A stretch of 63,635 nucleotides of DNA, filler included, from Reclinomonas americana ATCC 50394 (GCA_048213135.1; 15 parts of 14 records of this genome joined end to end with filler, not necessarily neighbours in it); one strand, 5' to 3'. Shown: positions 885 through 63,489, counted from the whole stretch's first letter. The notes: generated by a model from the letters alone, not told the origin. Numbers and translations: made by a program.

Positions 885-2167
885 TCACTTGGGCGTCGCA
901 TGCGCTCGCGCCGGGCTGCGCGAGTCGAAGAACGCCAGCGCCCACACGACCACGAGGGCCAGCACAGCGGCGTAGCGGCCCATTTCGCCACCGCACGGCA
1001 CGTAGCCGAGCAATATCGCACTGGCCACCGTCGCCAGCGCCAGCGGCCAGGTGACGAAGAAGCCAAACATGCCGTGCGCCTTGAACAGCTCGGCACTGCT
1101 CGATGATTGAGTGCCGTGCAGCAACAACGAAGAAAAAGAGTAACACTCACCGCGGCGTCGGCAGCGTCGCGTTGAAGCGCCACGCGGGGTACTGCACGGC
1201 CATGCCAAAGTAGAACTCGCTGGCCGCCAACAGGAGGACGGCCACACCGAACCAGCTGTGCCAGGTGGTGAAGTGGTTGCGGCCGTTGATGGACTTGTTG
1301 AAGAAGATGGCACCAAAGCCGAGGATGCCGCACACCAGACCGACGGTTTGCAGCAGCTGGTGCAGGCGCATGCGCGGCATGTCGAGCTGCGGAACGAGTC
1401 GAGCAGGCGAGTAGCTGCGCGAGAAGGCCAAGATGGCCTCACTCATGCAGATGAGGAACTGTGAGGAGACAAGGAAGAGACAGGTGAGGGATTGACGAAT
1501 GAGACAACAGGCACAGCGGCGACGGCACACCGAAATGCTGCGCGGCGGAGTGAGTAAGAGAAGCGAGAGTGAATGAGCGTGCGCATGGACGTGTCGCTTA
1601 CCTCATGAGCAGCGGGTGGAACGGGTAGAGGGCGACAGGGACGCCAGACTGCAGCACAATCACCACCGAGACGAGCACGAGGAGGAGGTGCGGGAGGATG
1701 GTGAGGGGCCCGGCGGGCGCGGCATTGGAGGAGGAAGAGGAGGAGGAGGGGGTGGCCTCGGGGTTCTGGATGTGGAGGGGAAGGGAGGTGAGGGATAGCA
1801 AGGGAAAGGTGGGAGAAGAGAGAGGTGAAAGAGGAGACCTGAAGGAAGGTGAGGGGGAGATATTGTGAAGAGCTGGGTGAGAGGCAGGTGAGGAAGTGAG
1901 CAAAGGAGTGGTGAGAGATAGCCGCTGGAACAGGGAAGAAGAGGAGGAAGGGGAGAAGAGAGGGGCAGGAGAGCTGAATGATGGACATGTGAGTCAAGGT
2001 GAGAAGTGAGGTGAGCGAAGGGGGTTCTTGAGACAGAGAAAGACAAGGAAACAAAGTCATGCATATTTGTCGGGAAAATGCAACTCATGTCTGAGTGCAA
2101 CACACACTCTCTCACACTCTCACTCTCTCACTCGCACACACACAAAACGCAACTTCCGTCTTCTTCA
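885..2167 (-). CDS. Cytochrome b561 domain protein (CYB561D-like), multi-exon, start codon uncertain
   Basis: Exons 1765-1602, 1537-1531 (7 nt), 1458-1151 and ~1097-885, with a probable 14-nt exon at 2167-2154. They give FHPLLMSISFLICMSEAIL, RMRLHQLLQ, NHFTTWHSWFG and KAHGMFG, the four heme-ligand His motifs of b561. Confidence 0.85.
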
Positions 2168-2251
2168 CTGCACACAAACAACACAATCTCCCACTTGTCA
2201 GTTTGCAAGTCAAAGAGAGAGCGGAAAAAGTGCATTGAGTGTGCACAGTGT

Positions 2252-2298
<47 letters not shown>

Positions 2299-2379
2299 AA
2301 GTGAGAGGAGAGTGAGAGGAGAGTGAGAGAGAAAACAAAAAATACTGACAAAGATCAAGCGGAAACAGTGACAGAAAGA

Positions 2380-2426
<47 letters not shown>

Positions 2427-2555
2427 TGTGTGTAGAAGAGAGACGACGCTACGTGTCGTTTCGTTCGGTGCGCGACGTAACGTTGGTCGGTCGTTGGTAC
2501 GACGTCTAGTTCGTTCGCGGTGGACGGACTGTGTCGTTTGGTTTCGGAGTGTTGC

Positions 2556-3653: not shown

Positions 3654-4585
3654 CCCCACGTGCACGACCACACATGTCGTCACGAGCATCCATCACCTCA
3701 CAAGCCCGCCGACTCGCGACCGTCAACCTCACTGGCGCTCTTTATCGCGATGGTTCTCGCGGTGGTGGCCGTGATCGCGGCCGTCTCATATTCTACCAAG
3801 GTGTTGCCGGCGGCCAAGGACGTGGCGAGTGCTCGTGGCGGCGTGTCGGAGGAGGCCATTCGCGCGACGATTACGGAGATTGTCGAGCGGTTTGGTGTTC
3901 GTTGCGTGGCGGCGATTGGGGAAGGAGGGGATGAGAGTGAGAGACTCACACTCGTTGCAGGTCTTGCCGGCACCGAAGTGAACGACGTGCACACGGCGAA
4001 CTATGTGATGGACAGAGTGCAGGAGATTGCAGTTGGGTACTTGCTCGTTTTGACGACTGTATCTGCATCGCCTTGTCTGCATTTACTTCGTCCTCATTCG
4101 CCCGCATCTATCATATCGATATTCTTCTCCTCTCTCCTGAGCCACCAATCTCGTTCCCATTGCGGCACCACACATTCGCCGTGCTCACATTCCTCGCTCG
4201 TTGAGTTGTCGCCCATTTCCGACTCATTTGCCCGCTGCAGTCACTCTCCTTCTTCCTCTCCTCTCTCTCTCGCCAGTCACCCACTCTTTCTCTCTCTCTC
4301 CCCCCGTTTCTCTCTTTTTTGCAATATCTCTCTGTCTCTCGCCACTCACACTCTCGCCACTCACACTCTCGCCACTCACTCTGTCACCACTCACTCTCTC
4401 ACCAGTCGCTCTCTCGCATATTCATTCTCTCACCCCCACTTCTCATCGTCATCTTCTTCTTATTCTTCTCTCTCTCTGTCTCCCTTCTTGTCTCTCTCTC
4501 TCTCTCTCTCACTCTCTCTTTCATTATCTCTCTATGTTTCTCTGCCAGTCGCTCTGTCGCACATCCGATCTCTCTCTCTCTGTCT

Positions 4586-4623
<38 letters not shown>

Positions 4624-5584
4624 ATTATCTCTCTGTGTCTCTTTGCCAGTTGCTCTCTCTATCACTTCCCTCTTTCCTCTTCTCACTCTTTCTCTCTCCC
4701 TCCCCCCCCTCTCCCTGCTCCCATTCTCTTCCCTTGTCCGCGCTCTGTTCATGCCCCTGATCTCCCTCCCCCCTTCACCAGCAACACGCCAGCCGCGACC
4801 TCGTCGTCGAGACCGACATCTCGCACCCCAGCGGCGACTACTCACTGCAACGCGTCATCACCATGGGCTTCGCCTACTCCAACATCACCAACGTGGCCAT
4901 GCGCGTGCGTGCCGCCGACGCCACAGGCGAACCGCAGCATTGCGTGCTGCTGGCCACGCACTTTGACACGTTTTTCAATTCCGTCGGAGCCGCCGACTGC
5001 ACCTCGTGTGTTGCGCTCATCCTCGACGTCATGCGGGTGCTCACACAGCCGGGAAATGCGGTCAGTTTGTCTATGTGTGCAGCTCGTTTGTCGTCGGTAT
5101 TGATGCTCTCTCTCTTCTCTCTCACTCTCTTTCTGTGTAGCTCTCCCTCCCTTCCTCTTTCTATGTGTGTCTCTGCTTCATCGTCCGCGGTGATTATGCT
5201 CTCTCTTCTCTCACTCCGTCCTCCCTCCCTCCTTCTGTGTGTGTGTGTCTGATGCTCTCTCTCACTCTCCGTGTGTGTTTGTTTGTTTTATTGTCGTCGG
5301 CATGTATACTCTCTCTCCATGTGAAGGGTCAGTGACTCGNNNNNNNNNNNNNNNNNNNNNNNNNNNNNNNNNNNNNNNNNNNNTTAATTAATTAANNNNN
5401 NNNNNNNNNNNNNNNNNNNNNNNNNNNNNNNNNNNNNNNCTCCGTCCTCCTCCCTCCTTCTGTGTGTGTGTGTCTGTATGTCTCTCTCTCTCTCTCGTCG
5501 TGTGTTTGTTTGTTTTAGTTTGTTCGTCGGTCGATGTATACTCTCTCTCCTACTGTGTAAGGGTACGTAGTGTACTCGTACGTT

Positions 5585-5644: not shown

Positions 5645-8600
5645 TCCCTCTTTCAGGCGTCATTCTGTGTCTCACCCTGTCCCTGAATATTGTTCTCAAC
5701 ATTTCCACCCAATTCTGCTCGACCGTCGTAGTTCTTCCCTTCCTGTTGTTCACCCCCTTTTCCCAATCACAGCACATGCTCACCCGCGACAAGGACGCCT
5801 GTGTCGTGGCGCTCTTCAACGGCGCCGAAGAATTCACCCTCATGGGCGCGCACGGCTTCACGCAGCACCCATGGGTGAAGAGGTTTGGGACTACGACCAG
5901 CTTTGAATTTCCTTCTCCACCCCATCACCCTTCGCCCTTCTCGACGATTCCTCGTCCTCCCACTCTCTTTGTTTCCTCTCTGCTTTCCATCGACGATTAT
6001 TCGTCCACTCCCCCGTCTTGCTGTCGCCTCATCCTCACTCTCATCCTTCTTTCGTCCGCCTTTCCTCTACGTCTTCCGTCGACGATTCTTTGTCCTTCCC
6101 CCTCCGTGGAGCCGACTTCTTCCTCGGTCTTCATCTTCTCCTTTTCTCCTTGCTTCCCTCCTTTCCATCAACATTTTTTTGTCCACTCCCTGTCTTTGTG
6201 CTCTCTCCATTTTTTGTCTTCCTCCTTTCCTCTCCGTCTTCCGTCTGACAATTCTTTGTGTCTCTTCGACCTCCCTCCCACTGTCTCCCTTCCTCTTTCT
6301 TTCTCTCTCCACTTCTGTTCTTCCCCGTGCGTGGAGCCCGCCTCCTTCTCCTTCTCCAGTTTTCTCCCTTCCTCCTTTTCCTCTCTCCTTTCCGTCGAGG
6401 ATTCCTTGTCCTCGCCTCCTGCCTAGATGTCTCCTCGACCTCCCTCCCGCTGTCTCCCTTCCTCTTTCTTTCTCTCTCCACTTCTGTTCTTCATTGTATG
6501 GAGCCCGCCTTTTCTCCTTCTCCAGTTTTCTCCCTTCCTCATTTTCCTCTCTTCTTTCCGGCGACGACTCCTCGGGCTCCCACGGTGTCTGGATGACGCG
6601 TCTTCCTCCTTCCTCCTTTTCTCTCCCCTTTCAGTCGACGACTCCTCGTCCTGCCCTCCTGCCTGGATATCCCCTCTTCCTCATTCCCCCTCTTCATCTT
6701 CCACCGTCAAACTCACATTGTCGTGCTCACGCAGCGGCGCGCTGAAGTATGTCATCAACATTGAGGTCTGCTCTCTGGATATATTTCCAGCTTAATTCGC
6801 AGTCCTCTCACACTCGCAATTGTCTGTAGTCTGCGGGAAGCACCGGCATGCCAAGTACGTCATTCTCGTTCCAGCAAGCTACAATGATCTCGCTCATCTC
6901 ACTCCTTTCTCTCTCCTGTCCCTCATCTTTAACCCATTCTCTTCCTTTTTCACTGTTCATGCTCTGTCTACCATCGCCGTTTTCCCCCTCTCTCCTGGTC
7001 TCTCTCTGCCTCCGTCTTCCCCTCCCCCTCTTTATCCTCCACCTGTCACCTCTCATTTATGTTCCCGCTCTTTCTCTTCTTATCCTCTTGCTCCCTCTGC
7101 TCCTTCCTTCCTATTTTCTGTCTCTCTCCCACTCCCTGCCACTCTCCCCCTTCCCCTTCCCCTTCCCTTCCCCTTCCCTTCCCCTTCCCTTCCCCTTCCC
7201 TTCCCCTTCACCTTCCCCCTTCCCCTTCCCCCTTCACCTTCCCCTTCCCTTCACCCCCTTTACCCTCCCCCTTTCCCTTCCTTCCCTTCCCTTCCCCTCC
7301 CCTTCCCCCTCCCCCGCACAGTCCTCTTCCAAACAAGTTCCGGCAACAACCAGCTCATGCGCATCTTTGCCAAATGGGCGCCCTATCCGTTCGCCGATGT
7401 CATTGTTGCGTGAGATGAGATCAGCGGCAGGCACTCCTGCTGTCGTTGACTGTCCTCACTCTTTTTATTCCGCAGGGAGATGATGTTTTCAAAAAGGCCA
7501 AAGTCGTCGCCTCTGACACTGACTTTCGCATTTTCCGCGACTATGCCGGCATGCAGGGCTTTGATTTTGCCTACTATGATGATTCGTTGCGTGCAGTCAT
7601 GCATTCTCTTGTCTTTCTTCGTCCTTGTGACGTCTCCCGCTTCATTTCCAGTCAATTCTACCACACGGAGCGCGATCAGCTGTGCCACATCAGCCCTGGC
7701 ACCCTTCAAATGTACGGCGAAAACACACTCGCGCTTGCCGAAGGCATCCTTGAGCACATGTGGCGTCCGCCGGTGGAAGACGAGGTATAATGGCTCCCTC
7801 CCCCCCTTTGCGAGAATCTCCTTTCTAACATCCCATGTCTGTGGTAGGGTGCTGCCACCGATGCTGTGTACATGACTGTGTTTGCCCGCATGCTGGTCGT
7901 GGTCACCACCGACACGCTGCGAACGATTCAGTTCACCATTGTGCTGCTCACTGCGGCGTGTTTGGTCTTCAAGTGTCGCACGCCGGGCTTCTTGCGCAGC
8001 CTCATTGGCGCCCTGGTAAGTGCGAAAAGAAGTGTCGTGGCTTCCATTGGACTCACATTCTTGTCGTCCAGTTCACGGCGCAGTCGGGCATGTTTCTGAG
8101 CGCCATTGGCGCAGCGACGCTGTCGACTCTGGTCACGCACCTGCTGCATGCGCGCATGAGTTACTACTCTTCGTCGTTGCTTGGCGTGGCACTCTACGGC
8201 TCGTGTTCCGCTCTCTTTTTCCTGCTGCCGTTTGCCAGTCGGGTGCGACCTCCTTACTCCCTCTGTGCATCGACTGTTGTTTGCTGACTTGCATGTCGCA
8301 GATCGCCGCCGCGCTGCTGCCGTCGCTGGCCACCAGCTTTGGTGTATTCAACCTGGTATCGGTGTGGACCGGACGTCTTGCGGCGCGTAGTGAGTTTGGC
8401 GCCTTGTTCTCGAGCACCATAGCCGTTACTGCGCTGGCTGCCTTCATGGCGCTCGCGGCGGGTGGCACTCTCTTTTGGTGGCTGGCATTCCGGTCCGTCG
8501 CAGTAGTTGTATATCCACGTTCCTTCTCCTGTTGCTCACTCACTGCATTGTGGGTGCGCGTCACAGACGAAAGCAGCGCACCGAAGTGGAGGTCAACGGC

Positions 8601-10296
8601 GCTGTCGAGTACGCCGCGCAGCTCACCATTCTTCTGCTCATGGGACTTTTGATGACGAGTTGCGCGCATTGAGTTTTCGACTCGTCAGGGGATAAGTGAC
8701 TCACAGCTTGGCAGAGGGATTCGGCATCTCGTACGTGTACGCCTTTTGTGCTGCAACGGGACTTGTCGGTTGCTTGCTGGCCGACGCACGCAAGTGTTGC
8801 GTCCTCTCACCCACGCACACACAAATTTGTCAAACATAATACTCAATGGTTCAGTCGTCACAAAGCCTGGCAATTGTTTTTGAAGTTGGTTCTTCTCGGC
8901 TTGCCGGCGATTGCTTGTGTAGCGCTGGTGACGCGTTGCATCATTCTGTTGGTGATGGAGCAAACGGGACGGCTGGGATTCGTCGACGGTGACTTGTATG
9001 TGGCGCTGACGGCGTCGTTCTTTACCATTTCGATTTTGTTGCCGGTGGTGGGCGTTTTGCGGGCCGCGGGGCATGTTGCGTGGGGAGAGGGAAAGGGGCG
9101 ATAAGGGGAAGGAGTGGTAAGGGGAAGGGGCGATGAGGGGAAGGTGGATGGGGGAAAATGGTGATAACGGGAAGGGGTGGGTAGGGGAAAGGGGTGGTTA
9201 AGGAAGGGGTGGTAAGGGGAAGGGAGATGAGGGGAAGGGGTGGTAAGGGGAAGGGGGATGAGGGGAAAGGGGATGAGGGGAAAGGGTGATACGGAGAAGC
9301 GGCGATAAGGGAAATGGTCGGAAAGGGAAAGGGGCGATGAGTGGGAGGGGCGATGAGGGTGAAAGGGTGATGAGGGGGAGGGGCGATTAGGAGAAGGGGC
9401 GATAGACGATGGCGCAGTACACCGACAGAAGTTTTACTTGGATAGTGGAACAGCAGGGATGAGAGGATTGAGATAATGCTGAGGAGAAAGAGACAGAGAG
9501 AGAGAGAGACAGTGACAGAGAGAGAGAGAGAAATGTCAGTCTCTCTGTCTCATCAACAAGAGAAGATAATCAGTCTCTCTCTCTCATCAAGAAAGAGAAG
9601 AAAGAGAATCAGTCTCTCTCTCATAGAGAACGAGAAGAGAGAAAACCAGTCTCTCTCAGAGTGGTGCTGTTGTGAATATCTGAGGGAGATGGAGGAGAGG
9701 GAGAAGGGAGAGGGGGAGGGAGGGAGCACGAGTGAGAAGCGGAAGAGAAGAGTGAGTAGACTGAGTAGAGTGAGTGCGTGTGTATGTGAGTGAGTGAGAG
9801 AGAGAGAGAAAGACAGGGAGAGTTTGTGAGTGAGTTAATGAGTGAGTGAGAATGTGCTGTGAACGAGCGCGCGTGTAAGGGGGAGTGAGAGATTGAGTGG
9901 TTGCGTGTGAGAGAGTGTGTGCGTGTGAGAGAGAATGAGTGGTTCCGAGAGAAAGAGTGAGAGGAGATAGCGACGGGTATATAGATGCAACAACGAGCAG
10001 TTGACTACAGTGTGTGCCAAGCCGCGTAGGCGATAAGTCCTTATGCGAGTGACACAGTCAAGGGAGAGAGCAACGAGACGATCAAAGCATAGTTTCAAGT
10101 TTGTGATTTTCTTAGGATCTCATCACAACCCCTCCATGCAGCTCCGCAAATTCTGCCTGATACTTGCCGTGGTCTTGCTGGTGTCTTGCGTGGCCTGCAC
10201 ACTCGTGCATCCGTTCTCGTTCAACGCTCCCAAGCGACTCATCCTCGTTCACCACACATTGTTGCGTGCACCTGTGCTTTGTTCACTTTCTTCTCG

Positions 10297-10327
<31 letters not shown>

Positions 10328-12717
10328 GGTAACCAGCGGCGACATGACTGACGGCACGGGCGAGGCGAAGAACGTGAGCTCGCGATACATGATGGGCTGG
10401 TTCGATCGCACTTCGTTGCCGCGGCCGATTGCCGAGGCAGTGGCCGGCAAGAAGCACGTATCGTCACTGGCTTTGCGACCGGCTCCTGGATTGGACGCTC
10501 CGCCGTTTCAATCGATTTACTACTGGAACAGACCGTTGTCGTCGGTGTATGAGTGGGGATTGGAGATGCATGAGGACGGCAAATTGCCGGCGGTGCATCC
10601 GTCGCTCACAGTTGTTGAGGATCGAGTGACTGAGGTGTGGCTGGGGAAAGGGGACGGGGTTTGCACTTGCGTTGATCGTTTTTTGCAAGGCTGGTCACTC
10701 TTTGGCAAGTTGTGATGCAATATCTGTTAGTTATCTTCTTTTATTCGGAGTTTCTTGATAGGAATTGTTTGCCTGGCAGTTGACAGTTGTCCCTGTTTAT
10801 TGCACACGAAGCTTAGGGTCTTGTTTGTTGCCTTCTCTGCCGTTCACTCTTTATGTGTGTACTCGGATGCTGCAAGTACCATTCATCTTGCGTGGCCCAT
10901 TGCCCTTGTTTGTTGCCGTCGTTTGCCAGTTGCTTGCAGTCTCGTTCTCTATTGTTCTCTTCGTTCTCTCTCGTTCTCTTCGTTCTCTCTCGTTTTTTAT
11001 CGTTCTCTATTTTTCTCTTCGTTCTCTCTCGTTCTCTTCGTTCTCTCNNNNNNNNNNNNNNNNNNNNNNNNNNNNNNNNNNNNNNNNNNNNNNNNNNNNN
11101 NNNNNNNNNNNNNNNNNNNNNNNNNNNNNNNNNNNNNNNNNNNNNNNNNNNNNNNNNNNNNNNNNNNNNNNNNNNNNNNNNNNNNNNNNNNNNNNNNNNN
11201 NNNNNNNNNNNNNNNNNNNNNNNNNNNNNNNNNNNNNNNNNNNNNNNNNNNNNNNNNNNNNNNNNNNNNNNNNNNNNNNNNNNNNNNNNNNNNNNNNNNN
11301 NNNNNNNNNNNNNNNNNNNNNNNNNNNNNNNNNNNNNNNNNNNNNNNNNNNNNNNNNNNNNNNNNNNNNNNNNNNNNNNNNNNNNNNNNNNNNNNNNNNN
11401 NNNNNNNNNNNNNNNNNNNNNNNNNNNNNNNNNNNNNNNNNNNNNNNNNNNNNNNNNNNNNNNNNNNNNNNNNNNNNNNNNNNNNNNNNNNNNNNNNNNN
11501 NNNNNNNNNNNNNNNNNNNNNNNNNNNNNNNNNNNNNNNNNNNNNNNNNNNNNNNNNNNNNNNNNNNNNNNNNNNNNNNNNNNNNNNNNNNNNNNNNNNN
11601 NNNNNNNNNNNNNNNNNNNNNNNNNNNNNNNNNNNNNNNNNNNNNNNNNNNNNNNNNNNNNNNNNNNNNNNNNNNNNNNNNNNNNNNNNNNNNNNNNNNN
11701 NNNNNNNNNNNNNNNNNNNNNNNNNNNNNNNNNNNNNNNNNNNNNNNNNNNNNNNNNNNNNNNNNNNNNNNNNNNNNNNNNNNNNNNNNNNNNNNNNNNN
11801 NNNNNNNNNNNNNNNNNNNNNNNNNNNNNNNNNNNNNNNNNNNNNNNNNNNNNNNNNNNNNNNNNNNNNNNNNNNNNNNNNNNNNNNNNNNNNNNNNNNN
11901 NNNNNNNNNNNNNNNNNNNNNNNNNNNNNNNNNNNNNNNNNNNNNNNNNNNNNNNNNNNNNNNNNNNNNNNNNNNNNNNNNNNNNNCTCTTCTCTCTCGT
12001 TATCTCTCTTTCTCTCTCATTCTCTCTCTTCCTTTCTGTCTCTCTCTCATTCTCCCGTACTCTCTCTCTCTCCTCTCTTCGCCTTCTCCCTGTTTCGTTC
12101 TCTCTCCCTCTCTCTCTCCCTCCCTCTCCACACCACGATTTACTATGTTTGCCTCACAGGAGGGCTACCGAAGAATAACACTGGAAATGGATCGCGGCGA
12201 TCGGGCATCGTCGGGCTCTGTGCGCGTGCAGGGTCACGTGCATGACTGGAGTCTTTCGGACGGTCCGCTGACGGACCTCATGCGTGCTGCCGATAAGGAG
12301 GGGCGTGAATTCAGCGCTGTTGTGCGGCATTCGGGTGCTGGTCATCGGTGAGGGTTGTAGATCTAGAGATGAAGAGCGCGCTTGAAGCTTGGATAGAGAA
12401 ACCAACTCAACAATCCTTCGGAAGAAGGACAGCAGAACCTGGCCGTGCAATACGTTAGAGAATCCAGCCTCACTGAGTGCATATTACCTATCTCTTGCAC
12501 AAGCTGTGAGGATATGCTCTTCGTGTTCTCACTCTCTCTGTGCCTCAGCTGGCAGTTCTGGGTGGAGCTGCGCGGCGGCGCCGACGCCAAGCTGCAGGCT
12601 ACGGTGGCGGTGGCATACTTTGACGCCGGCGCAGAGATGCAGGTGCATGCATCGAGTTTGCCCGACTGGACCACGCAGTTTAACTTCCGTGAGGTTGCGC
12701 TTTCGTATCAGTTCTGA
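3654..12717 (+). CDS. ERMP1/FXNA-like M28 metallopeptidase with multi-TM region, about 17 exons, 5' end not seen
   Basis: Spliced motifs: N-terminal TM, FGVRLAGT, YSNITNV, LLATHFDT..GAAD, LFNGAEEFTLMGAHGF..HPW, VINIESAG, PFADVIGDDVF, SDTDFRIFRDY, GFDFAYY..QFYHT. These are followed by several TM helices and PFSFNAPKRL. Stop at 12717. Confidence 0.9.
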
Positions 12718-48600: not shown

Positions 48601-50014
48601 TCGCTACGGCGGCAAGTGCAGTGGTTGAGAGCACGAGAGAGAGAGAAGAGATGAGTTATGAGACGTATTCTATGGCTTTCTCGAGTTGCTGTGAACGAAT
48701 GAAAGAGAGAGAGAGAGAGAGAAGAGGGGAAAGGGCGGAGAGAAAGAGTAATTGAACAACAGTTAGAAGTAGTCTTGCTCTCGCTAATGCACTCCACTCG
48801 TCGTGGAACACGAAAAGTGAACAACAGAGAGAGGGAGAGGAGAGGAGAAAGGAGAGGGAAAGTGACAAGAAGTGGAGCATTGCGCTCTGCTGGTTTTTTG
48901 TTTCTTCCACACGCAGGCGTTGCGATGCTAGGACAGCGACAGAAAGAGAGAGAGAGAGAGAGAAACAGAAAGACTGAAACAAGCAAGGAGCGCTAGCAAT
49001 TCTGCGGACCGTTTCCCTCTGCCTCACTCCAGTCGCTGTGACATACGAGCAGTGCACGAGAGAAAGGGAGCAAGAGAGAAGAGTGAGAGTGAGTGCGTTT
49101 GAGGAAAGACGGAGAAAAACAAGGAACAAAAGTTGTGTAACTCTTTTCGGTGAACGACAGAGAGAGAGAGAGAGAGTGTGTGTGTGTGTGTGAGTGAGAG
49201 AGAGAGACAAGTAAGCGAGTTGAGGCACGACTGAAAAAGCAGGGAGCCCCCCAGTCGCTGCGAGTAAGAGAGAGAGAAGAGGCAAGACTTTAACAAGCAG
49301 GAAGCTATTCTGCGGACCGTTTCGAATTCCCTCTGCCTCACTCCAGTCGCTGTGACATACGAGCAGTGCACGAGAGGAAGGGAGAAGAGAGAGAGAGCGA
49401 GTGAGTTTGAGGGAAGACTGAGAAAAACAAGGAACAAAGTTGTGCAACTCTTTTCGGTGAACGACAGAGAGAGAGAGAGAGAGTGTGTGTGTGTGTGTGA
49501 GTGAGAGAGAGAGACAAGTAAGCGAGTTGAGGCACGACTGAAAAAGCAGGGAGCCCCCCAGTCGCTGCGAGGCACAGACAAAGAAAGAGAGAGAAAGAGA
49601 GAGAGAGAAGAGGCAGGACGTAAACAAGCAGGAAACTATCGCCGAGGCACAGACTGTGAATGACAGAGAGAAAGAGAGCTGCAGCTGTGCTTTCCCTCCC
49701 TTCCCTCCCCCTCTCTCCCCCTCCTTGCCACGCAACTCCTCATCCTCCGCCATGACAGCAGCGGCCGCCGGCGTGCAAAACCCCGCATGCGACGTGTCCA
49801 CAACGCCGGCCTCCGCCATCAAGTTATTATGCTGCGCCTCCTGTCCCGGCAGCGCTCGCACCACCAACAGTGCATCGTTGTAGAGGCGGCACAGCAGGTC
49901 TTGCAGGCGCACCGCCGGGATCTCCACGCCAAACGTGTCGCGCAAGTCCAGTGAGAGCTCCGCGCTCGGGTGAACGCCGCCGCGAGAGCATACGAGCAGG
50001 AGGCGATCAATGAT
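45684..50014 (-). CDS. Hypothetical 4-TM membrane protein, 9 exons seen, 5' end in gap
   Basis: Exons join in frame from IIDRLLLVC... through three hydrophobic helices, a Cys-containing loop (YNSWCAAPL, VYAVCQE) and a final helix LVIGSVIGYTACLALVVLC, to TAG at 45684. Confidence 0.75.
49001..49571. repeat. Intronic tandem duplication of a ~260-bp block (49001-49264 and 49310-49571)
   Basis: Both copies run from TCTGCGGACCGTTTC to GGGAGCCCCCCAGTCGCTGCGAG and share the same embedded (GA)n(GT)n microsatellite. Confidence 0.85.
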
Positions 50015-50493: not shown

Positions 50494-53400
50494 TGGCTCA
50501 GACGGTGACGACCTCGGCCGCTACTAGCGTGCTCGCCGCGTCCGCCACACTGCAAGGCTCCGTCAACGCCAACAATGTGGCCGGCGGTCTCACCAACTCA
50601 TTCTCCTACGGCACCACGCAATCCTCCTACGCCAGCGCCTCTGTGTCCATCTATGCAGGCAAGAGTCTGACGTCTGGCACCTTGGATGGTGCCCTCGGAA
50701 CGGCTACGTTGTACTGGATACAAGGAATGTGTATGGACCGCAACTCGGGAGACTTGTTTGTCTCAAGCATTCAGTGCGTATGTGGTAGTTGTGTGCCGTC
50801 CACCACCAGTCTCGCACTCACCTGTGCACATGCGTGTACAATGTGTCACAAAAGATCGAATACTATTCGCCGAGTGTTTCAGAACGGATACGTTGTCACC
50901 TTTGTCGGCAGTACTACGTTCGGCAGCGCTGACGGCTACGGCACTGGCGCACTCTTCAAGGCGTACGTGCCTGAACAGCAAGCTTACATTAAGAGTGCAC
51001 CGTGTCTTCTTGTTGCTGAACTCGTGATGTGCGTGTGCTTTTATGATTATGTGCAGTCCCCGAGGCCTGGCGTGCACCTCGAGTGGCTTGATCTACGTGG
51101 CCGACAACTCCAACAACTGCATTCGTGTCGTGAACATAGCCACCACCCAGGTGACCACGCTTGCTGGCAGCTGCGGCACCGTACCCTCAATTGTGGATGG
51201 TACGGGTAACAGCGCGAGGTTCAGCGCTCCGGTGGGCGTGAATGTCGACGAAGCCAACTCGGTGATGTACGTATCTGATTCCCTCGGCAACGCAATGTTG
51301 CGTTACATACACGTATCCGTCTTCGTCGCTTGTAGCACTGATATCAGCAATAACACCCTTTGCGTGCTTGGTTTGTGCAGTCGAAAGGTTCACCGATCGA
51401 TAATCAGCCGCGGCCTAGTTTACCACTCACCTACGTCTGATGCATATGCTCGTCACAGGTCACACTCCCTGGCGCCGTCGTGACCACCGTCGCAGGAAGG
51501 CCGACGGCTGGGTTTGCTGACGGTGACGCGCTCACCGTCGCAAAGTTCAACTCGCCGCAGCAAATGGCACTCAACACAAGCGCCACCACTTTGTGGATTG
51601 CCGACAAGAACAACAACGTGCGTGCGTGCACTTGCGTGTGTGTCTCTGCTTGTGCTTGTGCAAAGCTTCTTCCGACTGGATCGAAATCGCAGAGAATTCG
51701 CATATTCGACATTGTGGGGAGCAACGTGTCGACACTCGTGGGCGATGGCACGGTCTCTTCTATTAACGGACCTCGTTGCGTTGCTTCCTTTTACTCGGAA
51801 CTCGTGATGTATGGGTCTTCATCTCACCTGCTTGCGTGTCCATGCAGTTAGCATGGCCACCGTTAACGCACCGCAAGCCATTGCTTACAATGCAGATTTG
51901 CACGTGCTCTATGTTGCTGGCGTTGAGTGATTGCCCGCTTGCAGTGTGTTCATTGCACTGTCGCCTCCTCAATATGGTGGTTCGCATCGCACACAGAGAG
52001 GTAGCATAGTGCGGCAGATTGACTTGAATACCAGCACCATTACCAGGATTGCCGGCACGGGCACCGCAGGAGCAGCCACTGGCCCTGCGTTGACCACCGC
52101 TCAATTCAACAGCAATTTAGTAAGTCAACGCGGAATCGCGTTTCTCGACGCACATCTGTTGCGATTGTGCACAGTTCTCATGACCTTTCTGCGATCGTGC
52201 AGTACTGGCTGACGTGGGACCCCGCGACTGCTTCACTGCTGATTGCCGGTACGCACAGCAGGCAGAGTGTGAGTCAATTGTCGGGCGCATTGTGTTCGCC
52301 AACCTTCGTTTGCAGATCAACTCGACATGACCATCCGTCGCCTCACTCTCGGTCCGTCGTCGACGGTGGTGGCCACCCCGGTCTCGGTCACGGGCTCCAC
52401 CAACGTATCGATATCTGCCGCCATCAGTTCGCTCACCCTCGGCGCCAAGTACTACTTCCGCGCGCTGGCCACAACTTCGGGTGGTCTGGTATTCAGCGGT
52501 ACGGCGCGTTCCTTCACGACCGACAGGGCGCCCACCGACATTGGATGCTCGACCACCACGTATTTGGCGCCATCGACGGCCAACACGGTGATCTGCACAC
52601 TCAGCACGGTAGACCCGGATGTTGGCGACACGTTCACGTATGCGGTGGTCAGCAGCACGCCGGCTGGCGTGTTCTCCATTCAGTCGAACTCGCAGTTGGT
52701 GATCACGGCGGCCGGTCAAACGACGGCCTCTCTGTCGGTGACACTGAGCACCACCGACAGCGGTGCGGCGTCGTTTAGCAAAACATTCACCGTCACATCA
52801 GGTACTCAATGAGAGAGAGAAAGAAAGAGAGAAGAGAGAGGGAATGTGTTTGTGTGTGCTAGCTCAACATCAGTTTGTTTGAAGTGGTGCACGCACAAGC
52901 TTATTCTATGTTGTTGTCGCAGTGTCCACTCCCTCTGTCACATCTGTTGACAGGTCAGTCATCTTCAACAACACGGTAGCCTCGACCCTGATGACGATAA
53001 CCGGTGTTTCCTTTTTCGACGTGGCGGCCGACGTTAGTTCATTTCGCATCTCTGTCAGGGGCTCCAGTGACTTTGTCGCGGGCATACCTGTCTCTAGCAC
53101 GTACATCAACAACTCATCGATCACCCTTCGTGTACCATCGCTCGGCGTCGCGGCGGGCCCTTACTCGATGCGGGTACGATGGTCGCCTACGGCGCCGTAC
53201 GTGACGGCCTTCAACTTCGACATTGGTACGAGTCGCATAGTGACGCAATCGTTCACATCCTGCTTTTCCTCTCTCACCTGTCTTGTTCCTCTGCACACTG
53301 CAGTTGTCAAGCCGCCACAGTGGTGCCAAGATCGCACCACACTTGCTGCGGTTGCGGGAACCATTACGTCCATCACCGATGGCACACCAACTGGCTCCGC

Positions 53401-56400
53401 GTATGCCCCGTACACCTCGTGTCGGTGGGTGGTGAATAGCGTCACCCCGGGTGCCAGCGTCATGTTCCTGTCTGTCATGCGTATCGACACGGAGGTGAAC
53501 AAGGACCAGGTGCGAGTGTACACTGGTGATGCTGGAGAGTCGGCGGCGACGCTTGTGGCATCTTTTTCAGGCGACCGCATCGGCGCACCTGTTGAGCTCT
53601 CTGGCAGTTGTGTCCGCTGTGCTGCGCCGCAATATGTGTCACACACTGCCTAATCCCTTGTTAAACTCGAATGCAACAGCAACCACACTGCTAGTGGTCT
53701 TTGAGGCCGATGGAACTCAGCAACGCAGTGGCTGGGAGATTCAAGTGTATGGTGAGTCGCTGCCGACTGTGTGGAATTAGTTCTACGAGCATGCAGCAGG
53801 CTCACTGCACAGAGCAGTACCACGAGGCCTGCAGGTCACGCTCTCCGGCGATGGTGGAATCTACTCATGGGGAACGAAGGTAGAGCTATCGGCGACTGTC
53901 GTCGACTTGGATAATCGGTCGTCTTTTGCGTCGGTAGGCTGAAGCACGGATATCGATCGACAGATGTACGAGCCTTCTTCTCTCATGTGTTGTACGTGTT
54001 TGCGTGTGTAGGCCGTTCCACTTGCTGTCTCTTGGAGCTGCGTCTTTTTCTCCGCCTTGGGCTCTGGCGCTGCCGAAGAGTGTGGCTTGTCGTTCACCCC
54101 GGAGTTGACCAACATCGTGGGACCTGGTGGCATGCGGAACGGAACGTTTCGAAAGCAGTTGCCGTCGGTGACATGCACTCTGTTTCATGTTTCTTATTTT
54201 CTACGATGCGCACCAGGTACGCATTCACTGTATTAGCCAAACGAGGCAGCTTCTCGGCCACGGCCAGCTCCTCCATCACTTACGGCGCCTCAAATTCCTT
54301 GTATTTGTTGGTGGTTCGTGTTTACCGGTGTGAATGTCAGTGATCGTCGTTGCCCGAGTGCTCACCACACGTGCACTGAGGCGTAGCCGAGTGTCGGCGA
54401 AACTTCTTCGCAGTTGCGCAACTGGATGGAGCCGTTTGTTGTGCGCGCCGTCATGTCGGGTGCGATTGCCGATCGATCAGATGTGACGGCCAGATTCAAT
54501 GTCACCGGTGTGTGTTGCGCTTTTGTACCCCTTTCCCGCGCATTGCTCACTCGTGCACTGTGACGCAGATCTGCGCACTGCGTCCGCTGTCTCTCTCGAC
54601 AAATTCGAAATCGTGCGGAACTCACGTTCGCTGCCGATTGCTTTACGCGTCGCGGCAGGTGTGTTGGATGCTGGCGCACGCTACGAGTTTGCATACGCTG
54701 CGCAAGCCGGAGGATCCATGTGTTGCGTGTGGTGCTGGGTCGATTTCCTCTTTTGTCTGCACCAGTTGATCTGTGTGTATTTTAGTGAGCACGACACTCG
54801 AGGTGGCCATGCGACCGCGTCCCAGTATCACGGGTTCGATTATGGCGACGCCGCAGCAGGGCGTTGAGCGATCCACGCTTTACACGATCACTGCGCCGAC
54901 GGGGAGCGGCGGCACCGGTGCGGTGTTATTCTACACATTTTACTACAATCGAGTGCGTACGGGCACTGCTGTACTCCTCGGTGTGCAGCTGAACTCGACG
55001 CTGGTTACCACCCTGGAGGCCGGTGATCCAAACGACCAGTACCGCGTGTCTGTTCAAGTGGAAGTCAGTGATGCGACTGGCGTGGCATCCAAGTTTCGTA
55101 AGTTGGTACCATTTCACGCTCTGTTCACCAACATGCCTTTGTGATTGGCGCAGGGCGAGTTTGAACACCACAGTTATCGTCAGCCCGCAACCGAGTGCAG
55201 GCTCCGCGCAGCTCCAACAGCAATTTGTCACGGGTGTGTCGACTCTGTCAGCGATGCCGCTCCGTGACAGCGCCGATGCCGCGCAGGTGGTGGCGCGCGC
55301 ATCCTATCTGCTGGCGATGCTGGAGGAGACCGATGGTCGAACAGCAGTGCTGGCCGGTGGTACGCCAACATATGCGGCCATGGTCTCTGTTGCCACGCAG
55401 TTGTCGACTGCGACCGCGCTGCTGCGCCCCAGTGATATGCCGCGTGTCGTAACCGGCTTGCTGAATTGCCTCAATCTGTGCTCCTTGTGCGTTTCTCCTT
55501 TCGTCTCTACAAAAACTGTTCATCTGTGCACTCACTTGCCTTCTCCCCGCAGTGCGCTGCCGCAGCTTCCTCAAACTGAGCGCATCGCGGTCATTGGAGC
55601 CATAGTTTCATCGTCCGAGGCCGTCTCGAAGTCGTCAATCGTGAGTCAGAGTTCAGATGCTGCCTCGATACTGCAACTTGCCGATCGCCTCGCCGCGACA
55701 CTGCCCGGAATCGCTCAAGCTGTGGATACAAGTCCCTTGGGCAGTCGACTCACAAAGTCGGCAGAGCAGGTGCTCACCACTGCGGTGGCGGTGCAGGTAT
55801 GCTGAAAGAGGGGCTCGCGCAGTACGCCTTCTTGTCTTACATTTCGACATGCAATCCAACCGCAGATTCCCGGTGATGCACCTGCTCGCTTTGTTGGTTC
55901 CACCTTCACAATGGAGGCAGCGCACTTCTCAGCCGAGCAGCCACCGACTGCCGCCAGCGCCGTCAAGTTCGTAGACAACAACAACGCGACGACGGTCTTG
56001 GAAGCTCTGCCTCAGTTCAATGCTGCAAGCGACTCTACATCGGCGGCTGCATCCTTCGCCTTTCCGCGTTCATTTGCGTCCGTTGTTGGTGGGCGCAGCG
56101 ACAGTGCCGTGTACATATCGACCATGTTCGCTGCCGGCACGAATCCGTACGACGTACTTGGTTCCGGCACCGTGAATCAGGGCAGTAACAAGACAGCCCA
56201 GCTGCTCACCTCCATCCACACCTTCAAGTTGATTGACGCGACAGACTCATCATCGATCACGGTTTCGAATCTGACGGAGTGGTTTTACTTTCAACTGGGC
56301 GGCACAAACAGGACTCTGGGCGAGCAGATCGCCGGGCAGCTGGTGGGCGCTGCTCCTATCCGCTGTGCTCTCTCTCTCTTCCGGACGCGATACTGACTCA

Positions 56401-59400
56401 GTAGAGTGCTGCTGCGCACAGAACAACACGCTGCGTTACATGCAGTCGTGCAACCCGGGGAGCTACACATTCAGCACGTCTGTTCAGCTCGTACCGCTGT
56501 TCAATATGTGTTCGCGGGGGGCGCCGTCTACGACGAATTCCACCGCCGCTACCTCGTCAAATACCACTCTTGCAGTCAATCCGCAGCGCCTCGACATGTG
56601 CGTGTATTGGTCGACACTGACGGGCAAGTGGAGCGCCGATGGTTGTCGCTCGTACTTAAAGGTGCTGGAAGACGGCTTCCTGTCCGAGCTCCGTGAGATG
56701 CCCTCTCTTGCTAAACAAGCCATCATTGTTTCGCAGGTCCAGANNNNNNNNNNNNNNNNNNNNNNNNNNNNNNNNNNNNNNNNNNNNNNNNNNNNNNNNN
56801 NNNNNNNNNNNNNNNNNNNNNNNNNNNNNNNNNNNNNNNNNNNNNNNNNNNNNNNNNNNNNNNNNNNNNNNNNNNNNNNNNNNNNNNNNNNNNNNNNNNN
56901 NNNNNNNNNNNNNNNNNNNNNNNNNNNNNNNNNNNNNNNNNNNNNNNNNNNNNNNNNNNNNNNNNNNNNNNNNNNNNNNNNNNNNNNNNNNNNNNNNNNN
57001 NNNNNNNNNNNNNNNNNNNNNNNNNNNNNNNNNNNNNNNNNNNNNNNNNNNNNNNNNNNNNNNNNNNNNNNNNNNNNNNNNNNNNNNNNNNNNNNNNNNN
57101 NNNNNNNNNNNNNNNNNNNNNNNNNNNNNNNNNNNNNNNNNNNNNNNNNNNNNNNNNNNNNNNNNNNNNNNNNNNNNNNNNNNNNNNNNNNNNNNNNNNN
57201 NNNNNNNNNNNNNNNNNNNNNNNNNNNNNNNNNNNNNNNNNNNNNNNNNNNNNNNNNNNNNNNNNNNNNNNNNNNNNNNNNNNNNNNNCAGAATGAGCAC
57301 ACATCATCCACAAGCAAACAGCTCACTGAATGCACGATCATACCCTTGGGGGCTCGCAATTGTCGCTGACGACGGCGACTCTGGATCTCACTCAGCGACA
57401 TCAAGGATTCGACGTTGGATCGAGGGGATAGGGGCTCCTCAGAGCGACGTGATCCCTCCGTCGGCGTAGAAGGTGCACGGCCGAGACGGAGTGCGTTGGC
57501 GAGCTGCTGTCGCAAATTGGTCTCGCCGCGTTCGAACCAGGTGTCGTTCATCGGCAGACGTGGAGTGAATCGGAAGGCAAAGCCGGCGAGCCCACAAACT
57601 GGCACCATGGTGGCTCCTGCATTCGGTGTTGTAGGTGAGATACAGCTATTGAAGCACGTAACATATAACGATGAATTCGCGAACCAATGATGAGGCCGAT
57701 GACGAGGTCGCGGAACAAGGTCGACAGGTCAGAGACATCTCGTTGTGCGGCCAGGACGGTATTGAAGTACAAGGCGCACAAGGTGGCAAGCCACAGCACC
57801 TGTGTGCACGCACGGTGAGTATTCCTACTCGTTGTGACTTGTATGCTGCATGGCAAGACACGCAACTGTGAGTTTCTGCGTGCGCCGAAAGTTGTCCAAC
57901 GGTTGCGTGGTCATGGTGGCCAGCCACGAGTGACCGTGCTTGAACATTCGAACCAACTGAGTTCCAGCACGCACTATCGCGTACTGCTGACGCCGAGCCT
58001 CGATCAGACGAGTCACAATCGCTGTTTCATAACAATGCTTCAGCGACACACAGGCGGGTGCAGGCACAGACACGGAGACGCACCCTTGAAGTGCGCAATT
58101 ACTTCGCTGTGTCGACGCAGTTGTTGAACGAGATCAGGATCACGGATGTCCTTATTGCTTTCCCCTCTGCCATGGTCTCCAGAAGACTGTGGTCTTGGGG
58201 CAACGGAGGGAGCAACATCGCGATTCGCCTTGAGAGGAAGAGATAAAAGTCAGGGAGTGAATTTGTAGAGTGTTCCGGGTGGTGCACGCAAGGCGTACCT
58301 CGAGCATCAAAGCGGGCACAATCGTGCTCTTGGATATCACCAGGCTTCTTGCAGTTTCCAGCATGCACAATGGAACTGCGGACACTGCGATGCACAGTGA
58401 CACGTAATGCTTAGTGTGAGACGAGAAAAAACCACCGACATCGTCAACAGCTCACCAGCCGGTGGACTGGGCGCATATGGCAGCAGAGATGGGCGTCTCG
58501 CGACTATCGATGGTGAATCCAACAAGAGGCGCTGGTGACGAAAAGTTTAGAGAAATGCACCCACAAACAAACATGTGTGCGCGCGTTCCGCTGACCTCCG
58601 CAGACTTCTGCCGGTCGCCAGTCGGCAAGCTCGACTCACTCTCCGCCCTTGCACACGGGATTGCATGTGATGGTCNNNNNNNNNNNNNNNNNNNNNNNNN
58701 NNNNNNNNNNNNNNNNNNNTTAATTAATTAANNNNNNNNNNNNNNNNNNNNNNNNNNNNNNNNNNNNNNNNNNNNTATTCCCATTATTGCGGCAGGAATT
58801 GTTCCCGTGGACAGCGACTTGGAGTACCACGCTGCAGACGGCACCAAAAGGCACGAGCAATGGACCGCCAACTCGCCTGCTTCGGAATCTACGGCGGTAC
58901 GTGGTGGATCGCTGTGAATCTCGATCTACGTGCACTCTCTCTCAGTCGCTCACGACGCGGATGTGTGTGCAGTCGCCCACCGCCAAGTTCACTTCACTCG
59001 AGGCTCTTGGCAGCGAGTCATCGCACTCGCCGAGTCGGCTTGCCAAGCTGAATCGCATCCAGCGATCTCCATCCAGCGGCTCTGTGGTAGTAATCGGTGC
59101 TCGGCGATCGAGTCTTGCCAGTTTGTCGGGCAGTGAGGTGTCATTGCCGTCGCCCACCATGTTTACGGTGTGTGCACGAGTGATGAGTGCCGGCGCTTGA
59201 TGTGACGCAGCCTCACTGATTGCGTCTCCCCTCCCAGTTCGTCGCTTCAGCACGGTGCGACCTGTCGTTGGCGTCGAGTCGATGCAGAGTGTGAGTGCTC
59301 ACTACAGACGCCCCGTCGACCGTGCATGCTTGCTTGTAATGGCTGCGACCAACCATCTTCTCCGCAGATGGTGGACCACAATCTGCTAACGTCTCGCTTG

Positions 59401-61117: not shown

Positions 61118-61753
61118 TTGTGATAATACGTAATAATGATAGTGATAATAGTCATATTATACAGAAGACACTTCACTGATCCATACAATGAGAATCTACC
61201 AGTGATCGCCAACAAGTCTCGTGTGCTTTCCTTCTACAACTAAAACTGTTTTTAGATTAAGTGTGTTGTCGATGTTGAGAAAAAAGCCCTATTCAGGACA
61301 CACAGCCTCCATGCCAGGAAGAAGACTTCGTCAGCAGTGACCACCAGAAGACGTCCATCGCAGTAACTACGAAGAAGAAAAAAAGATGTTGATCATATCA
61401 AGAAGAACAGTGGGGCAAGCATTGGGAAACTGTTACTTCTCTCACACCACGCCACCATGAGCAAGCGCTAGCTGCACTCCGGATCCGGATCCGGCCTGAA
61501 CCAGTGCACCGTATCGATTCTGCGTTCGGACTACGCCATGCACGCCATTCGATGCCGAGGACGAGGAGACAGCGCGTGAGTGGGAACGCATGCGCAAGTG
61601 CAGACAACGCTCTCTGCATTGACTTTTTGTGCAGCAAGCAAGAAGTCCTGCAGTGTAGTGATTGCATTGCATTGATTGTGTGCTCTGTGTGAGCAATAAT
61701 GGCTTCATCTTCATCTTCTTCGTGCAAGTCAAGTGCGCATACGGCGCCTGCAG

Positions 61754-62050
61754 TCGACGATGTGACGGAGGCGGATGTGGATCGTGTGGCGCGCATGATT
61801 CGTGCGGCGCTCGGGGTGTTTGTGGTGATGAAGCAGTCGCCGGAGAGTGTCAAGTGCAGGTGGTCGAAGGAGGTGGGAAGGGGATGGAAGGGATGATTGG
61901 GAAAGGGAGGGAGGGAGGGAGAGGGAGGGAGGGAGAGGGAGGGAGGGAGGGAGGAAGGAGAAGGGTGCGAGAAGAAGAGGGAGTGTGAGAGAGAGAGAAA
62001 GCGTGAGAGTGTGTGTGTGTGTGTGCTTGTGAGTGTGTGTGTGTGTGCGT

Positions 62051-62082
<32 letters not shown>

Positions 62083-63362
62083 GAGAGAGAGAAAGCGTGA
62101 GAGAGTGTGTGTGAGAGAGGCATGCATTGTGAGTGTGAGTTGATTGCAGCATGTGNNNNNNNNNNNNNNNNNNNNNNNNNNNNNNNNNNNNNNNNNNNNT
62201 TAATTAATTAANNNNNNNNNNNNNNNNNNNNNNNNNNNNNNNNNNNNNNNNNNNNGAAAGGGAAAGGGAAAAGAAGGAGGAGGAGGGGGAGGAGGAAAAG
62301 AGAGAGGGTGTGTATACGTTTCCGCAGGTGTGCAGAAAAAGGGGGAAGCGGATTGGAAAGGGAAAAGAAGGAGGAGGAGGGGGAGGGGAGGAGGAGGGGG
62401 AGGAGGAGGAGGAAAAGAGATAGGGTGTGTATTCTGGGTATCCGGCGTGAGCAGGAAAAGGGGGAAGGGAAAGAGAGAGGAAGAAGGAGGAGGAGGAGGA
62501 GGAGGAAAAGAGAGAGAGGGTGTGTGAGAGAGAAGTGGAGAGGGCGGAGGAGTTGGCGCAAAAGGTGACGGTGAAGGAGTGGATTGAGAAAGAGAAAACT
62601 GATAAATGTGTGAGAGAGAGAGGATGAAGGAGAAGGAGTGAGACGAATTGATGCGAAGTAGGGAGCAACAAGGGCATTCAACGGAGACAATAGAAGATAG
62701 CATTGCAGTCGTCGCTGGTCCATGAGTTTGAGTTGCATAGCTGCTGCTCCTCGTGTGATGGCTTGCAGCGGTTGAGGTCAGTACGTAAATAGTGCAGGCA
62801 GGAGGGGAAATGGAAGGAGGTGAAGAGGACTGAGAGAAGACAAGCAGGCACACAAAGAGAGAGAGAGAGACAGAAGGTGAGAGTGTGTGTGAGAAAGAGA
62901 GAGCGGTGCGGAGTGAGAAGGAGGGGATAGGCAGGAAGACGGACAGACTGGCTGGTTCGTGGCAGCGCGTATGTTGCGAAGATGTAGCGGCAAGAGAGTG
63001 CGTTAGTCAACGGTTCTCGTACGGAAGGAAGAGGAGTCAGCTCACCTCTCGTTGCTTTCCCCTTCCCCTCCTCACCCTCCTCATCCCCTCCCTTCTCAGG
63101 TGTTTGTCAATGGCGAATTCATCGGCGGCCACAGCGCCCTCGTTCAAAACATGTCCCGCGACGAACTGCGTCACATGCTATGGACACGACTCACGCAGAT
63201 CACGGTTCGCGCCTCTCCCTCCCGTTCGCCATCCCCGCCGCTGCTACTACTCACCCGCCCACCCAATAGGTGCGCTTGATGGACGGCCACGCCGTGTACC
63301 GGCAGTTTGCCAAGGGCGCGACCATGCCGAAAGTGTATGCGTTCGTGCGGAGGGAAGAGGAT
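61754..63362 (+). CDS. Monothiol-type glutaredoxin domain fused to a UBX-like domain, partial
   Basis: Exon ~61754-61872 gives VFVVMKQSPESVKCRWSKE. Exon 63100-63204 gives VFVNGEFIGG. Exon 63270-63362 continues ITVRLMDGHAVYRQFAKGATMPKVYAFV (UBX R..DG....F....T...VY.FV pattern). Confidence 0.65.
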
Positions 63363-63489
63363 GTTGCGTGGTGAGGGGAAGGGGAGAGAGGGAGGAAAAA
63401 GAAAGGGAGAGAGAAAGAAAGAAAGAAAGCCAGCACGACGCTGCGTGTACTCGACCTGCAACGTGAGTGGTGGTGGCTGCATGGTGATG

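Follow-up and report, generated by a model that had tools for sequence, protein, structure and literature searches.

Human cells contain 5' splice sites that pair with U1 small nuclear RNA (snRNA) out of the usual register. As described by Tan et al. 2016 (PMC4856993), shifted-register sites (Roca & Krainer 2009) are uncommon and match U1 over a long AAGUAU stretch, with -6.5 kcal/mol given for the model oligonucleotide ACAGUCAAGUAUA; for bulge sites (Roca et al. 2012), Table 3 of the same paper lists 68 (+2/+3) and 51 (+3) predicted cases among 201,541 human sites, of which all validated non-canonical registers together make up 1.5%. Two donor styles within one genome have been reported for Ostreococcus lucimarinus, where, according to Irimia & Roy 2008 (PMC2483917), atypical GTGCGTG donors outside chromosome 2 coexist with a GTRNGT style; for the congener O. 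tauri only single snRNA copies are reported, and the authors raise snRNA changes or two spliceosomes, leaving the cause open. Here we analysed a 63,635-base stretch of DNA (called the window in the following; about 52% G+C, with numerous masked N runs), in our reading nuclear DNA of an intron-rich eukaryote, in which a second class of predicted donors, H|GTTGCG(T/C)(G) (the bar marking the cut), appears beside ordinary ones. We consider this class to be most simply read by a divergent or second U1-type RNA, a reading to which we assign a probability of roughly 0.6. Out-of-register 5' splice sites are curiosities in well-studied eukaryotes; here, the commonest single donor word would be out of register, which raises the question of how the splicing machinery reads a start signal that is one base out of place. 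Our conclusions are drawn from the sequence of the window and from comparison with distant homologues.

The motif is strongly overrepresented and oriented with the genes. All 28 GTTGCG sites listed in a first-pass annotation of the window proved correct in position and strand (23 GTTGCGT, 4 GTTGCGC and 1 GTTGCGA), as did all nine of its sister forms. GTTGCGT has 31 matches versus 7.93 +/- 2.85 expected from 100 dinucleotide shuffles, none of which reached 31. Relative to gene strands taken from a gene model that demands only GT of a donor (the GT-only model, see below), GTTGCGT was found 25 times in sense and 3 times in antisense orientation and GTTGCGC 11 and 4 times, while no such bias was seen for GTTGCGA (3 / 5) and GTTGCGG (2 / 5). 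A test that uses no coding information, in which all GT-hexamers with at least 8 copies were scored for a downstream branch-like motif plus first YAG at 50-100 nt, ranked GTTGCG first: the CTNAY + YAG module followed 17/64 of its copies, compared with 543/6794 (8%) in the background (p = 8e-6).

The position of the cut was assessed by homology in two genes. For a gene of the GxGYxYP family, all GT/AG pairs that keep the frame and lie no more than 30 nt from a junction were scored against five full-length homologues; for an M28/ERMP1-like peptidase gene, frame-keeping GT/AG pairs within 30 nt were scored against homologues from a HMMER search. Four class members (7405, 7586, 19866 and 20280) were placed exactly by this approach, the donor at 20079 was consistent but in a near tie (2907 vs 2906), and the sister site at 20572 was favoured. 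The spliced GxGYxYP model aligned with its homologues straight through the junctions at 44% identity (E = 1e-81), the M28 alignments were ungapped at both 7405 and 7586, and the neighbouring GT at 19871 was rejected with a score of 2810 versus 2907 for the GTTGCG at 19866.

Introns were catalogued with a Viterbi exon/intron model that combines a three-periodic Markov coding score with a YAG + CTNAY bonus at the 3' end and requires nothing but GT of a donor; it was trained on Pfam-supported frames first and then on its own output, a first run with an EGF-repeat gene as sole training having been too noisy to use. In the GT-only model, GTTGCG was the commonest donor hexamer with 17 of 131 introns (13%), compared with 9 for GTGAGT and 5 for GTGCGT. 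Because several calls sat 2-6 bases off a GTTGCG, 13% is a lower bound; several GTTGCG donors were indeed misplaced by a few bases until the model had learned the motif. With a learned donor model, GTTGCG(T/C) accounted for 25/138 introns, and, when strands were scored without competition, for 27/147 (18%) introns on winning strands versus 0/40 on losing 'shadow' strands. Stricter filters on the trained model gave 22/89 (25%), 19/72 (26%), 14/51 (27%) and 7/36 (19%), and the trained-model shares lean upward since the model's own predictions served to train its final donor matrix. We estimate that the GTTGCG class comprises between about a fifth and a quarter of the predicted introns, as the commonest single hexamer and not as the majority of donors. 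The 'quarter to a third' of the first-pass annotation thus lies at the top of our range.

The model used 24 of the 28 sites that had been put forward as frame-keeping donors, passing over 42256, 63363, 2153 and 47878, and added three that were absent from that list (8796, 42632 and 54514). Altogether 27 of the 36 sense GTTGCG(T/C) copies serve as model donors, and all 27 introns of the class keep the frame and have GT-AG ends as in U2-type introns. Site 2153 adjoins the poorly supported first exon of a cytochrome b561 gene, site 63363 has a rival GTTCGT donor 22 nt upstream, and the candidate introns at 42256 and 47878 look real by their sequence signals. An ordinary-class intron at 19615 (63 nt, in frame, stop-free) was missed as well and is seen as an insert of 21 residues that all homologues lack; because in-frame, stop-free introns such as 19615 and 42256 are read through, gene-finder intron counts are too low here. 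Judged by homology placement, reading frames and motif statistics, we take it as established that the GTTGCG sites are real GT-AG donors.

What sets the class apart is the displacement of its conserved bases. In the GT-only model, 26 of 44 donors with T at +3 had G at +6 as opposed to 19 of 87 others (p = 4e-5), and the enrichment which the first-pass annotation had set beforehand as the touchstone of its claim is thus present within the window. Among the 31 class sites examined, G stood at +6 in all, +7 was T in 25 and C in 5, and +8 was G in 15, the latter mirroring the +7 G of GTGAGTG/GTGCGTG. The class had been described as an ordinary donor with one extra T; this picture was borne out for GT-AG donors with a one-base displacement, but not for the notion that any ordinary core accepts the T, since GCG(T/C) is nearly alone in doing so. 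In the trained model, 27 GCG(T/C) cores occurred with and 8 without the extra T, versus 0 and 17 for GAG(T/C) (p = 5e-8), the corresponding figures in the GT-only model being 17/6 versus 0/9 (p = 2e-4). As the inserted base, T alone works, other bases being without donor-like bias except for a sense excess of GTGGCG; GTGGCG(T/C) occurs 21 times in sense and 7 times in antisense, which may reflect Val-Ala codons or a further donor variant. Plain GTGCG(T/C) donors account for 8/147 introns, and the class lacks the GTGCGTG at +1 to +7 that defines donors of the Ostreococcus type. The exon side differs too: G at -1 was present in 1/31 class sites and 0/9 sister forms versus 24/42 ordinary donors (p = 7e-7). 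As the phases of the class introns are even (7, 8 and 10), a -1 G share of about 0.29 is expected from codon composition, and the class lies below this value (p = 3e-4).

In all other features the two donor classes resemble each other. Intron length has its mode at about 66-70 nt, with medians of 68 (class) and 66 nt (ordinary); its distribution is bimodal because purine-/pyrimidine-rich minisatellites fill the long introns (42982-43955, 7147-7314, 9088-9404, 46113-46591 and 48062-48553), the short introns of about 66 nt being without them. CTNAY is found 8-50 nt from the 3' end in 12/19 short class introns versus 30/40 other short introns, the branch motif being of the CTCAC/CTGAC type at a median distance to the 3' end of 18.5 (class) versus 21 nt (ordinary), and 16/19 short class introns end in a CAG acceptor, a U2-type 3' end. 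The two classes are found in the same genes, with like base composition. Sharing of genes, 3' signals, lengths and phases therefore points to one (major) spliceosome, the classes differing only at 5' recognition. U12-type introns have the donor consensus /RTATCCTT and a TCCTTAAC-like branch near the 3' end; this type was rejected, the donor here being GTTGCG and branch, acceptor and length as in the ordinary class. An introner-like mobile family was likewise dismissed, a shared 9-mer being present in 6/171 class pairs versus 18/780 pairs of other introns, with no similarity of intron bodies beyond the motif.

Duplex energies were calculated with ViennaRNA for a human-type U1 5' end, AUACUUACCUG, as printed in Tan et al. 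2016 (PMC4856993), the canonical U1 5' end being ACUUACCU. Ordinary donors gave a mean of -6.9 kcal/mol (n = 29), with the +1 G on C8 in 24. The 27 class sites gave a mean of -0.9 kcal/mol and no stable duplex in any register, values that are provisional as they refer to human U1; their +1 G was unpaired in 14/27 and paired to C9 in 1/27. Placing a G at -1 of the model string shifted the energy to -5.9 kcal/mol, a single change that rescues canonical pairing and yet is avoided by the class. With human-type U1, the shifted helix was not of the kind that characterizes shifted-register sites, namely more stable and strong enough, nor is the pairing of -1 G, +1 G and +2 U retained as in bulge +2/+3 sites, given the rarity of a -1 G. 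A search of the window for snRNA genes gave no Rfam match at gathering scores, and at E <= 1 only low-complexity microRNA/untranslated-region look-alikes.

In our preferred reading, ordinary donors (G|GTGAGT, G|GTGCGT, GTAAGT etc.) and the second class, both GT-AG, would be served in the same genes by one spliceosome. In an alignment by core, the leading intron G of GTTGCGT occupies the position of the last exon G of G|GTGCGT; compared with GTGCGTG, the GCG(T/C)G core is one base more distant from the cut, and the recognition register would be shifted by one. The reader would be a divergent or second U1-type 5' end, ...ACGCAAC..., complementary to GUUGCGU. We prefer such a matching partner to a bulged U on canonical U1, because the core is fixed as GCG, a -1 G is avoided and canonical U1 pairs hardly at all; likewise, the numbers favour variant U1/U6 snRNAs over an ordinary donor with a bulge. 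Which RNA or protein reads the GTTGCG donors is our inference. An elaboration would be a natural two-U1 system, in which canonical U1 handles G|GTRNGT and a second U1 (...ACGCAAC...) the approximately 20-25% H|GTTGCG(T/C) introns; we consider this tentative and rather unlikely, but if true it would constitute a third intron class beside the U2- and U12-type.

The most radical objection is that GTTGCG marks no donor class at all, reflecting instead Val-Ala coding bias (GTT GCG), a donor at the second GT (GTTGC|GT) or the end of an introner. In line with it, a sense bias is also seen for GTTGCT and further GTTGCN words, and six sense-strand GTTGCGT copies are unused as donors, but the homology scans reject neighbouring GTs, most sense copies serve as model donors, reading frames stop or shift past the motif, the downstream branch + YAG link holds without a coding model, and shared 9-mers are no more frequent among the intron bodies than among ordinary introns. 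We regard this objection as largely refuted and put its chances close to nil. A single canonical U1 reading both classes carries more weight, the U1 5' end being very widely conserved. Here the U would be bulged (+2/+3) or the helix shifted by one, with U1C, LUC7-type and SR-like proteins adding affinity and U6/Prp8 fixing the cut at GU. The one-base displacement of G/T/G fits, and the missing -1 G suits the shifted form, in which the +1 G takes the C9 partner; moreover, bulge and shifted registers are proven in human cells (Tan et al. 2016, PMC4856993; review PMC9311317). What speaks against canonical U1 are the predicted duplexes near zero in every register and the choice of core: A would be expected opposite the two pseudouridines (GTTGAGT, GTTAAGT), whereas with the extra T GCG is found 27 times and GAG never. 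Moreover, the bulge form should keep the -1 G that is nearly absent here, and the shifted form leads one to expect A or G at -1, where 23/31 sites have pyrimidines. Taken together, recognition by canonical U1 appears possible but doubtful. The very weak predicted U1 pairing would also agree with recognition that is independent of U1 pairing, GUUGCGU being read directly by U6/U5/Prp8 or a sequence-specific protein. The ACAGAGA box of U6 is not complementary to UUGCGU, the window holds no positive evidence for such a reader, and an invariant 7-8 nt motif is more typical of RNA-RNA pairing. U1-independent splicing and U6 cut-site choice are mentioned for human cases in the introduction of Tan et al. 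2016 (PMC4856993). All in all, we judge U1-independent recognition to be improbable.

Several points also weigh against a divergent or second U1-type RNA. The donor class is known from sequence alone (gene models, homology, motif statistics), and homology fixes the position of only 4 to 6 of its members. A small self-trained model built on 63 kb supplied the catalogue; many of the 147 introns in it are doubtful, introns that stay in frame and lack stops (19615, 42256) are missed, and training of the final donor model on its own calls favours GTTGCG. The U1 5' end used is that of human and not of this organism, and nearest-neighbour energies ignore U1C/LUC7 and pseudouridine. The pyrimidine preference at -1 (p = 0.01, weak) has to be counted here too. 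Finally, the GTGCGTG consensus in Ostreococcus together with the single snRNA copies in O. tauri implies that a fixed GCG core need not mean a matching snRNA.

Table 1. Predicted introns with GTTGCG-class, sister and comparison donors, and Pfam-supported genes, in the window
Feature	Donor	Position	Strand	Evidence and remarks
Intron	GTTGCGTG	3901..3960	+	model, 60 nt, branch-like motif, CAG acceptor
Intron, M28 peptidase gene	GTTGCGTG	7405..7475	+	homology best, 1496 vs next 1376; ungapped
Intron, M28 peptidase gene	GTTGCGTG	7586..7651	+	homology best, 1496 vs 1341; YYDDS|QFYHTERD ungapped
Intron	GTTGCGCG	8659..8714	+	model, 56 nt, GACTCAC branch motif
Intron, new relative to first list	GTTGCGTC	8796..8865	+	model, 70 nt; weaker 3' end (AAG)
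Intron, purine-rich repeat body	GTTGCGTG	9075..9405	+	model, 331 nt; weak downstream exon
Intron	GTTGCGTG	10261..10336	+	model, 76 nt
Intron, gene 13240-17834 (-)	GTTGCGTG	13343..13417	-	model, 75 nt
Ordinary-class comparison intron	G|GTGCGTCG (GTGCGT)	19615..19677	+	homology best, 2907 vs 2843; unspliced 2762
Intron, GxGYxYP gene	GTTGCGTG	19866..19933	+	homology best, 2907 vs 2810; MTDGDNVQW|MLNDF ungapped
Intron, GxGYxYP gene	GTTGCGCT	20079..20150	+	homology top, near tie
Intron, GxGYxYP gene	GTTGCGTC	20280..20345	+	homology best, 2907 vs 2888
Intron, GxGYxYP gene	GTTTGCGA (GTTTGCG, two T before GCG)	20370..20431	+	homology best, 2907 vs 2883
Intron, sister donor, GxGYxYP gene	GTTGTGTG (GTTGTGT)	20572..20635	+	homology, 20572 (2935) above the model's 20575 (2907)
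Intron, sister donor, EGF gene	GTTTCGTG	24398..24471	-	model, strongly coding flanks, scores 72 and 114
Intron	GTTGCGTT	30003..30397	-	model, 395 nt
Intron	GTTGCGTC	32250..32320	-	model, 71 nt, CCTCAC branch motif
Intron	GTTGCGCC	35068..35142	-	model, 75 nt, flanking exon scores 33 and 35
Intron	GTTGCGTG	36355..36423	-	model, 69 nt
Intron	GTTGCGTT	38889..38967	-	model, 79 nt, weak flanking exons
Intron, sister donor	GTTACGTC	38990..39058	-	model, 69 nt, weak flanks
Intron, sister donor	GTTTCGTG	39105..39182	-	model, 78 nt, weak flanks
Candidate in-frame intron	GTTGCGAC	42256..42315	+	by eye, 60 nt, stop-free, TCTGAC + CTGCAG; model reads through
Intron, new relative to first list	GTTGCGTC	42632..42694	+	model, 63 nt
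Long intron with 23-nt x 43 repeat	GTTGCGTG	42954..44039	+	model, 1086 nt
Intron	GTTGCGTC	45790..45854	-	model, 65 nt
Intron	GTTGCGTG	46965..47041	-	model, 77 nt; weak downstream exon
Intron	GTTGCGTC	47112..47180	-	model, 69 nt
Candidate intron	GTTGCGCC	47813..47878	-	in-frame, 66 nt (modal length), GACTCAC; alternative to the model's 42-nt call
Long intron	GTTGCGTG	48023..49736	-	model, 1714 nt, masked N inside
Intron	GTTGCGTT	51297..51380	+	model, 84 nt
Intron	GTTGCGTT	51775..51847	+	model, 73 nt
Intron, new relative to first list	GTTGCGCT	54514..54568	+	model, 55 nt
Intron	GTTGCGTG	54722..54785	+	model, 64 nt
Intron, gene 56484-57947 (-)	GTTGCGTG	57800..57866	-	model, 67 nt
Cytochrome b561		1150-1602	-	Pfam, single open frame
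M28/ERMP1-like peptidase		4761-7787	+	Pfam, single open frame
GxGYxYP protein		19057-19908	+	Pfam, single open frame
Large teneurin-type EGF gene, ending in Peptidase_S74 domain		22271-28854	-	Pfam
NHL, CUB, REJ domains		51028-55141	+	Pfam

The intron at 20370 may be a two-base-displaced relative of the class; GTTTGCG(T/C) has only 5 copies in the window.

Pfam domains on single open frames identify eukaryotic genes on both strands of the window (Table 1). The GxGYxYP-family gene (18103-20743, +), of a Pfam family described as a putative glycoside hydrolase, has at least 6 introns; its top full-length matches (44% identity) are unnamed proteins of metagenome collections, and the gene may be an old bacterial acquisition. 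At 18236-18704 (+) lies a tandem repeat of 84-105 nt units, each with ...CCACCAG|TCGCT|GTACTCC..., that is, acceptor-like and donor-like signals 5 nt apart, which the model strings into a chain of 5-nt 'exons'; this may be an intronic repeat or a spliced element. Judged from cluster names, the M28 exon has Micromonas commoda (42%) and Closterium (37%) as named neighbours, while an Atlas look-up yielded only phage/bacterial clusters of Peptidase_S74. No related DNA came up when metagenomes were scanned with the M28 exon, and no same-species protein was found for either gene, the best matches being 37% and 32% for the GxGYxYP exon (two word-index searches) and 46% for the M28 exon (HMMER). The very large gene at 22268-33531 (-) encodes many teneurin-type EGF repeats and a C-terminal Peptidase_S74 domain (intramolecular chaperone), with one exon of 1737 nt.

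Repeats and masking complicate the gene models. Open frames overlap across the six frames because long purine-/pyrimidine-rich low-complexity tracts lack stop codons. Masked N form 16 pairs of 44-base blocks with 12 unmasked bases between (e.g. 2556-2599 / 2612-2655), and four further blocks are longer (489-939 bases); the gene models are limited where such runs fall within predicted introns or exons, as several do. At 1-430, a 26-nt unit (GTTGCTCTGCACGGCGTGCTCCGCTT) forms a tandem array of 16.5 copies; a weak FeThRed_B Pfam match at 3-449 (-) (E = 4e-6) is probably an artefact of this repeat translated on the minus strand, and the idea of a necessarily photosynthetic organism was therefore dropped. 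At the end of the window, a (GAC)n run (63555-63635, +) was taken by the model as a poly-Asp exon.

A donor class of this kind would offer a test bed for how the cut site is fixed when U1 register and GU disagree, for the diversification of U1 5' ends and for the tolerance of two donor grammars within one gene. On the practical side, gene finders with a single donor matrix would mis-call at least a fifth of the introns in such a genome. Full-text and concept literature searches found no description of a GTTGCG/GUUGCGU donor class, the full-text matches being primers and unrelated sequences only, although logos in figures or supplements would escape such searches. Among described systems, the human shifted-register sites are similar in being GT-AG, in having the consensus bases one position further in and in following an exon without the usual -1 G; the class differs from them by its share of about 18-26% of introns, by a GCG core unable to pair with the U1 pseudouridines and by an energy of about -0.9 kcal/mol. 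Bulge +2/+3 sites likewise combine GUU... donors with one U outside the helix and a +5 G moved to +6, but the bulge form keeps the -1 G paired, whereas the class has it in 1/31 and is more than 100 times commoner. U12-type introns resemble it as a minority class whose rigid donor motif is recognized by a dedicated snRNA, from which the GTTGCG class departs by keeping the ordinary branch motif, acceptor and length. Ostreococcus lucimarinus, finally, shares the GCGTG core and the presence of two donor styles within one genome; there, according to Irimia & Roy 2008 (PMC2483917), the two styles occupy different chromosome regions in relation to intron density and lack the extra T, whereas in the window both donor classes are intermingled within the same genes and a GCG core comes with the extra T in most cases (27 vs 8).

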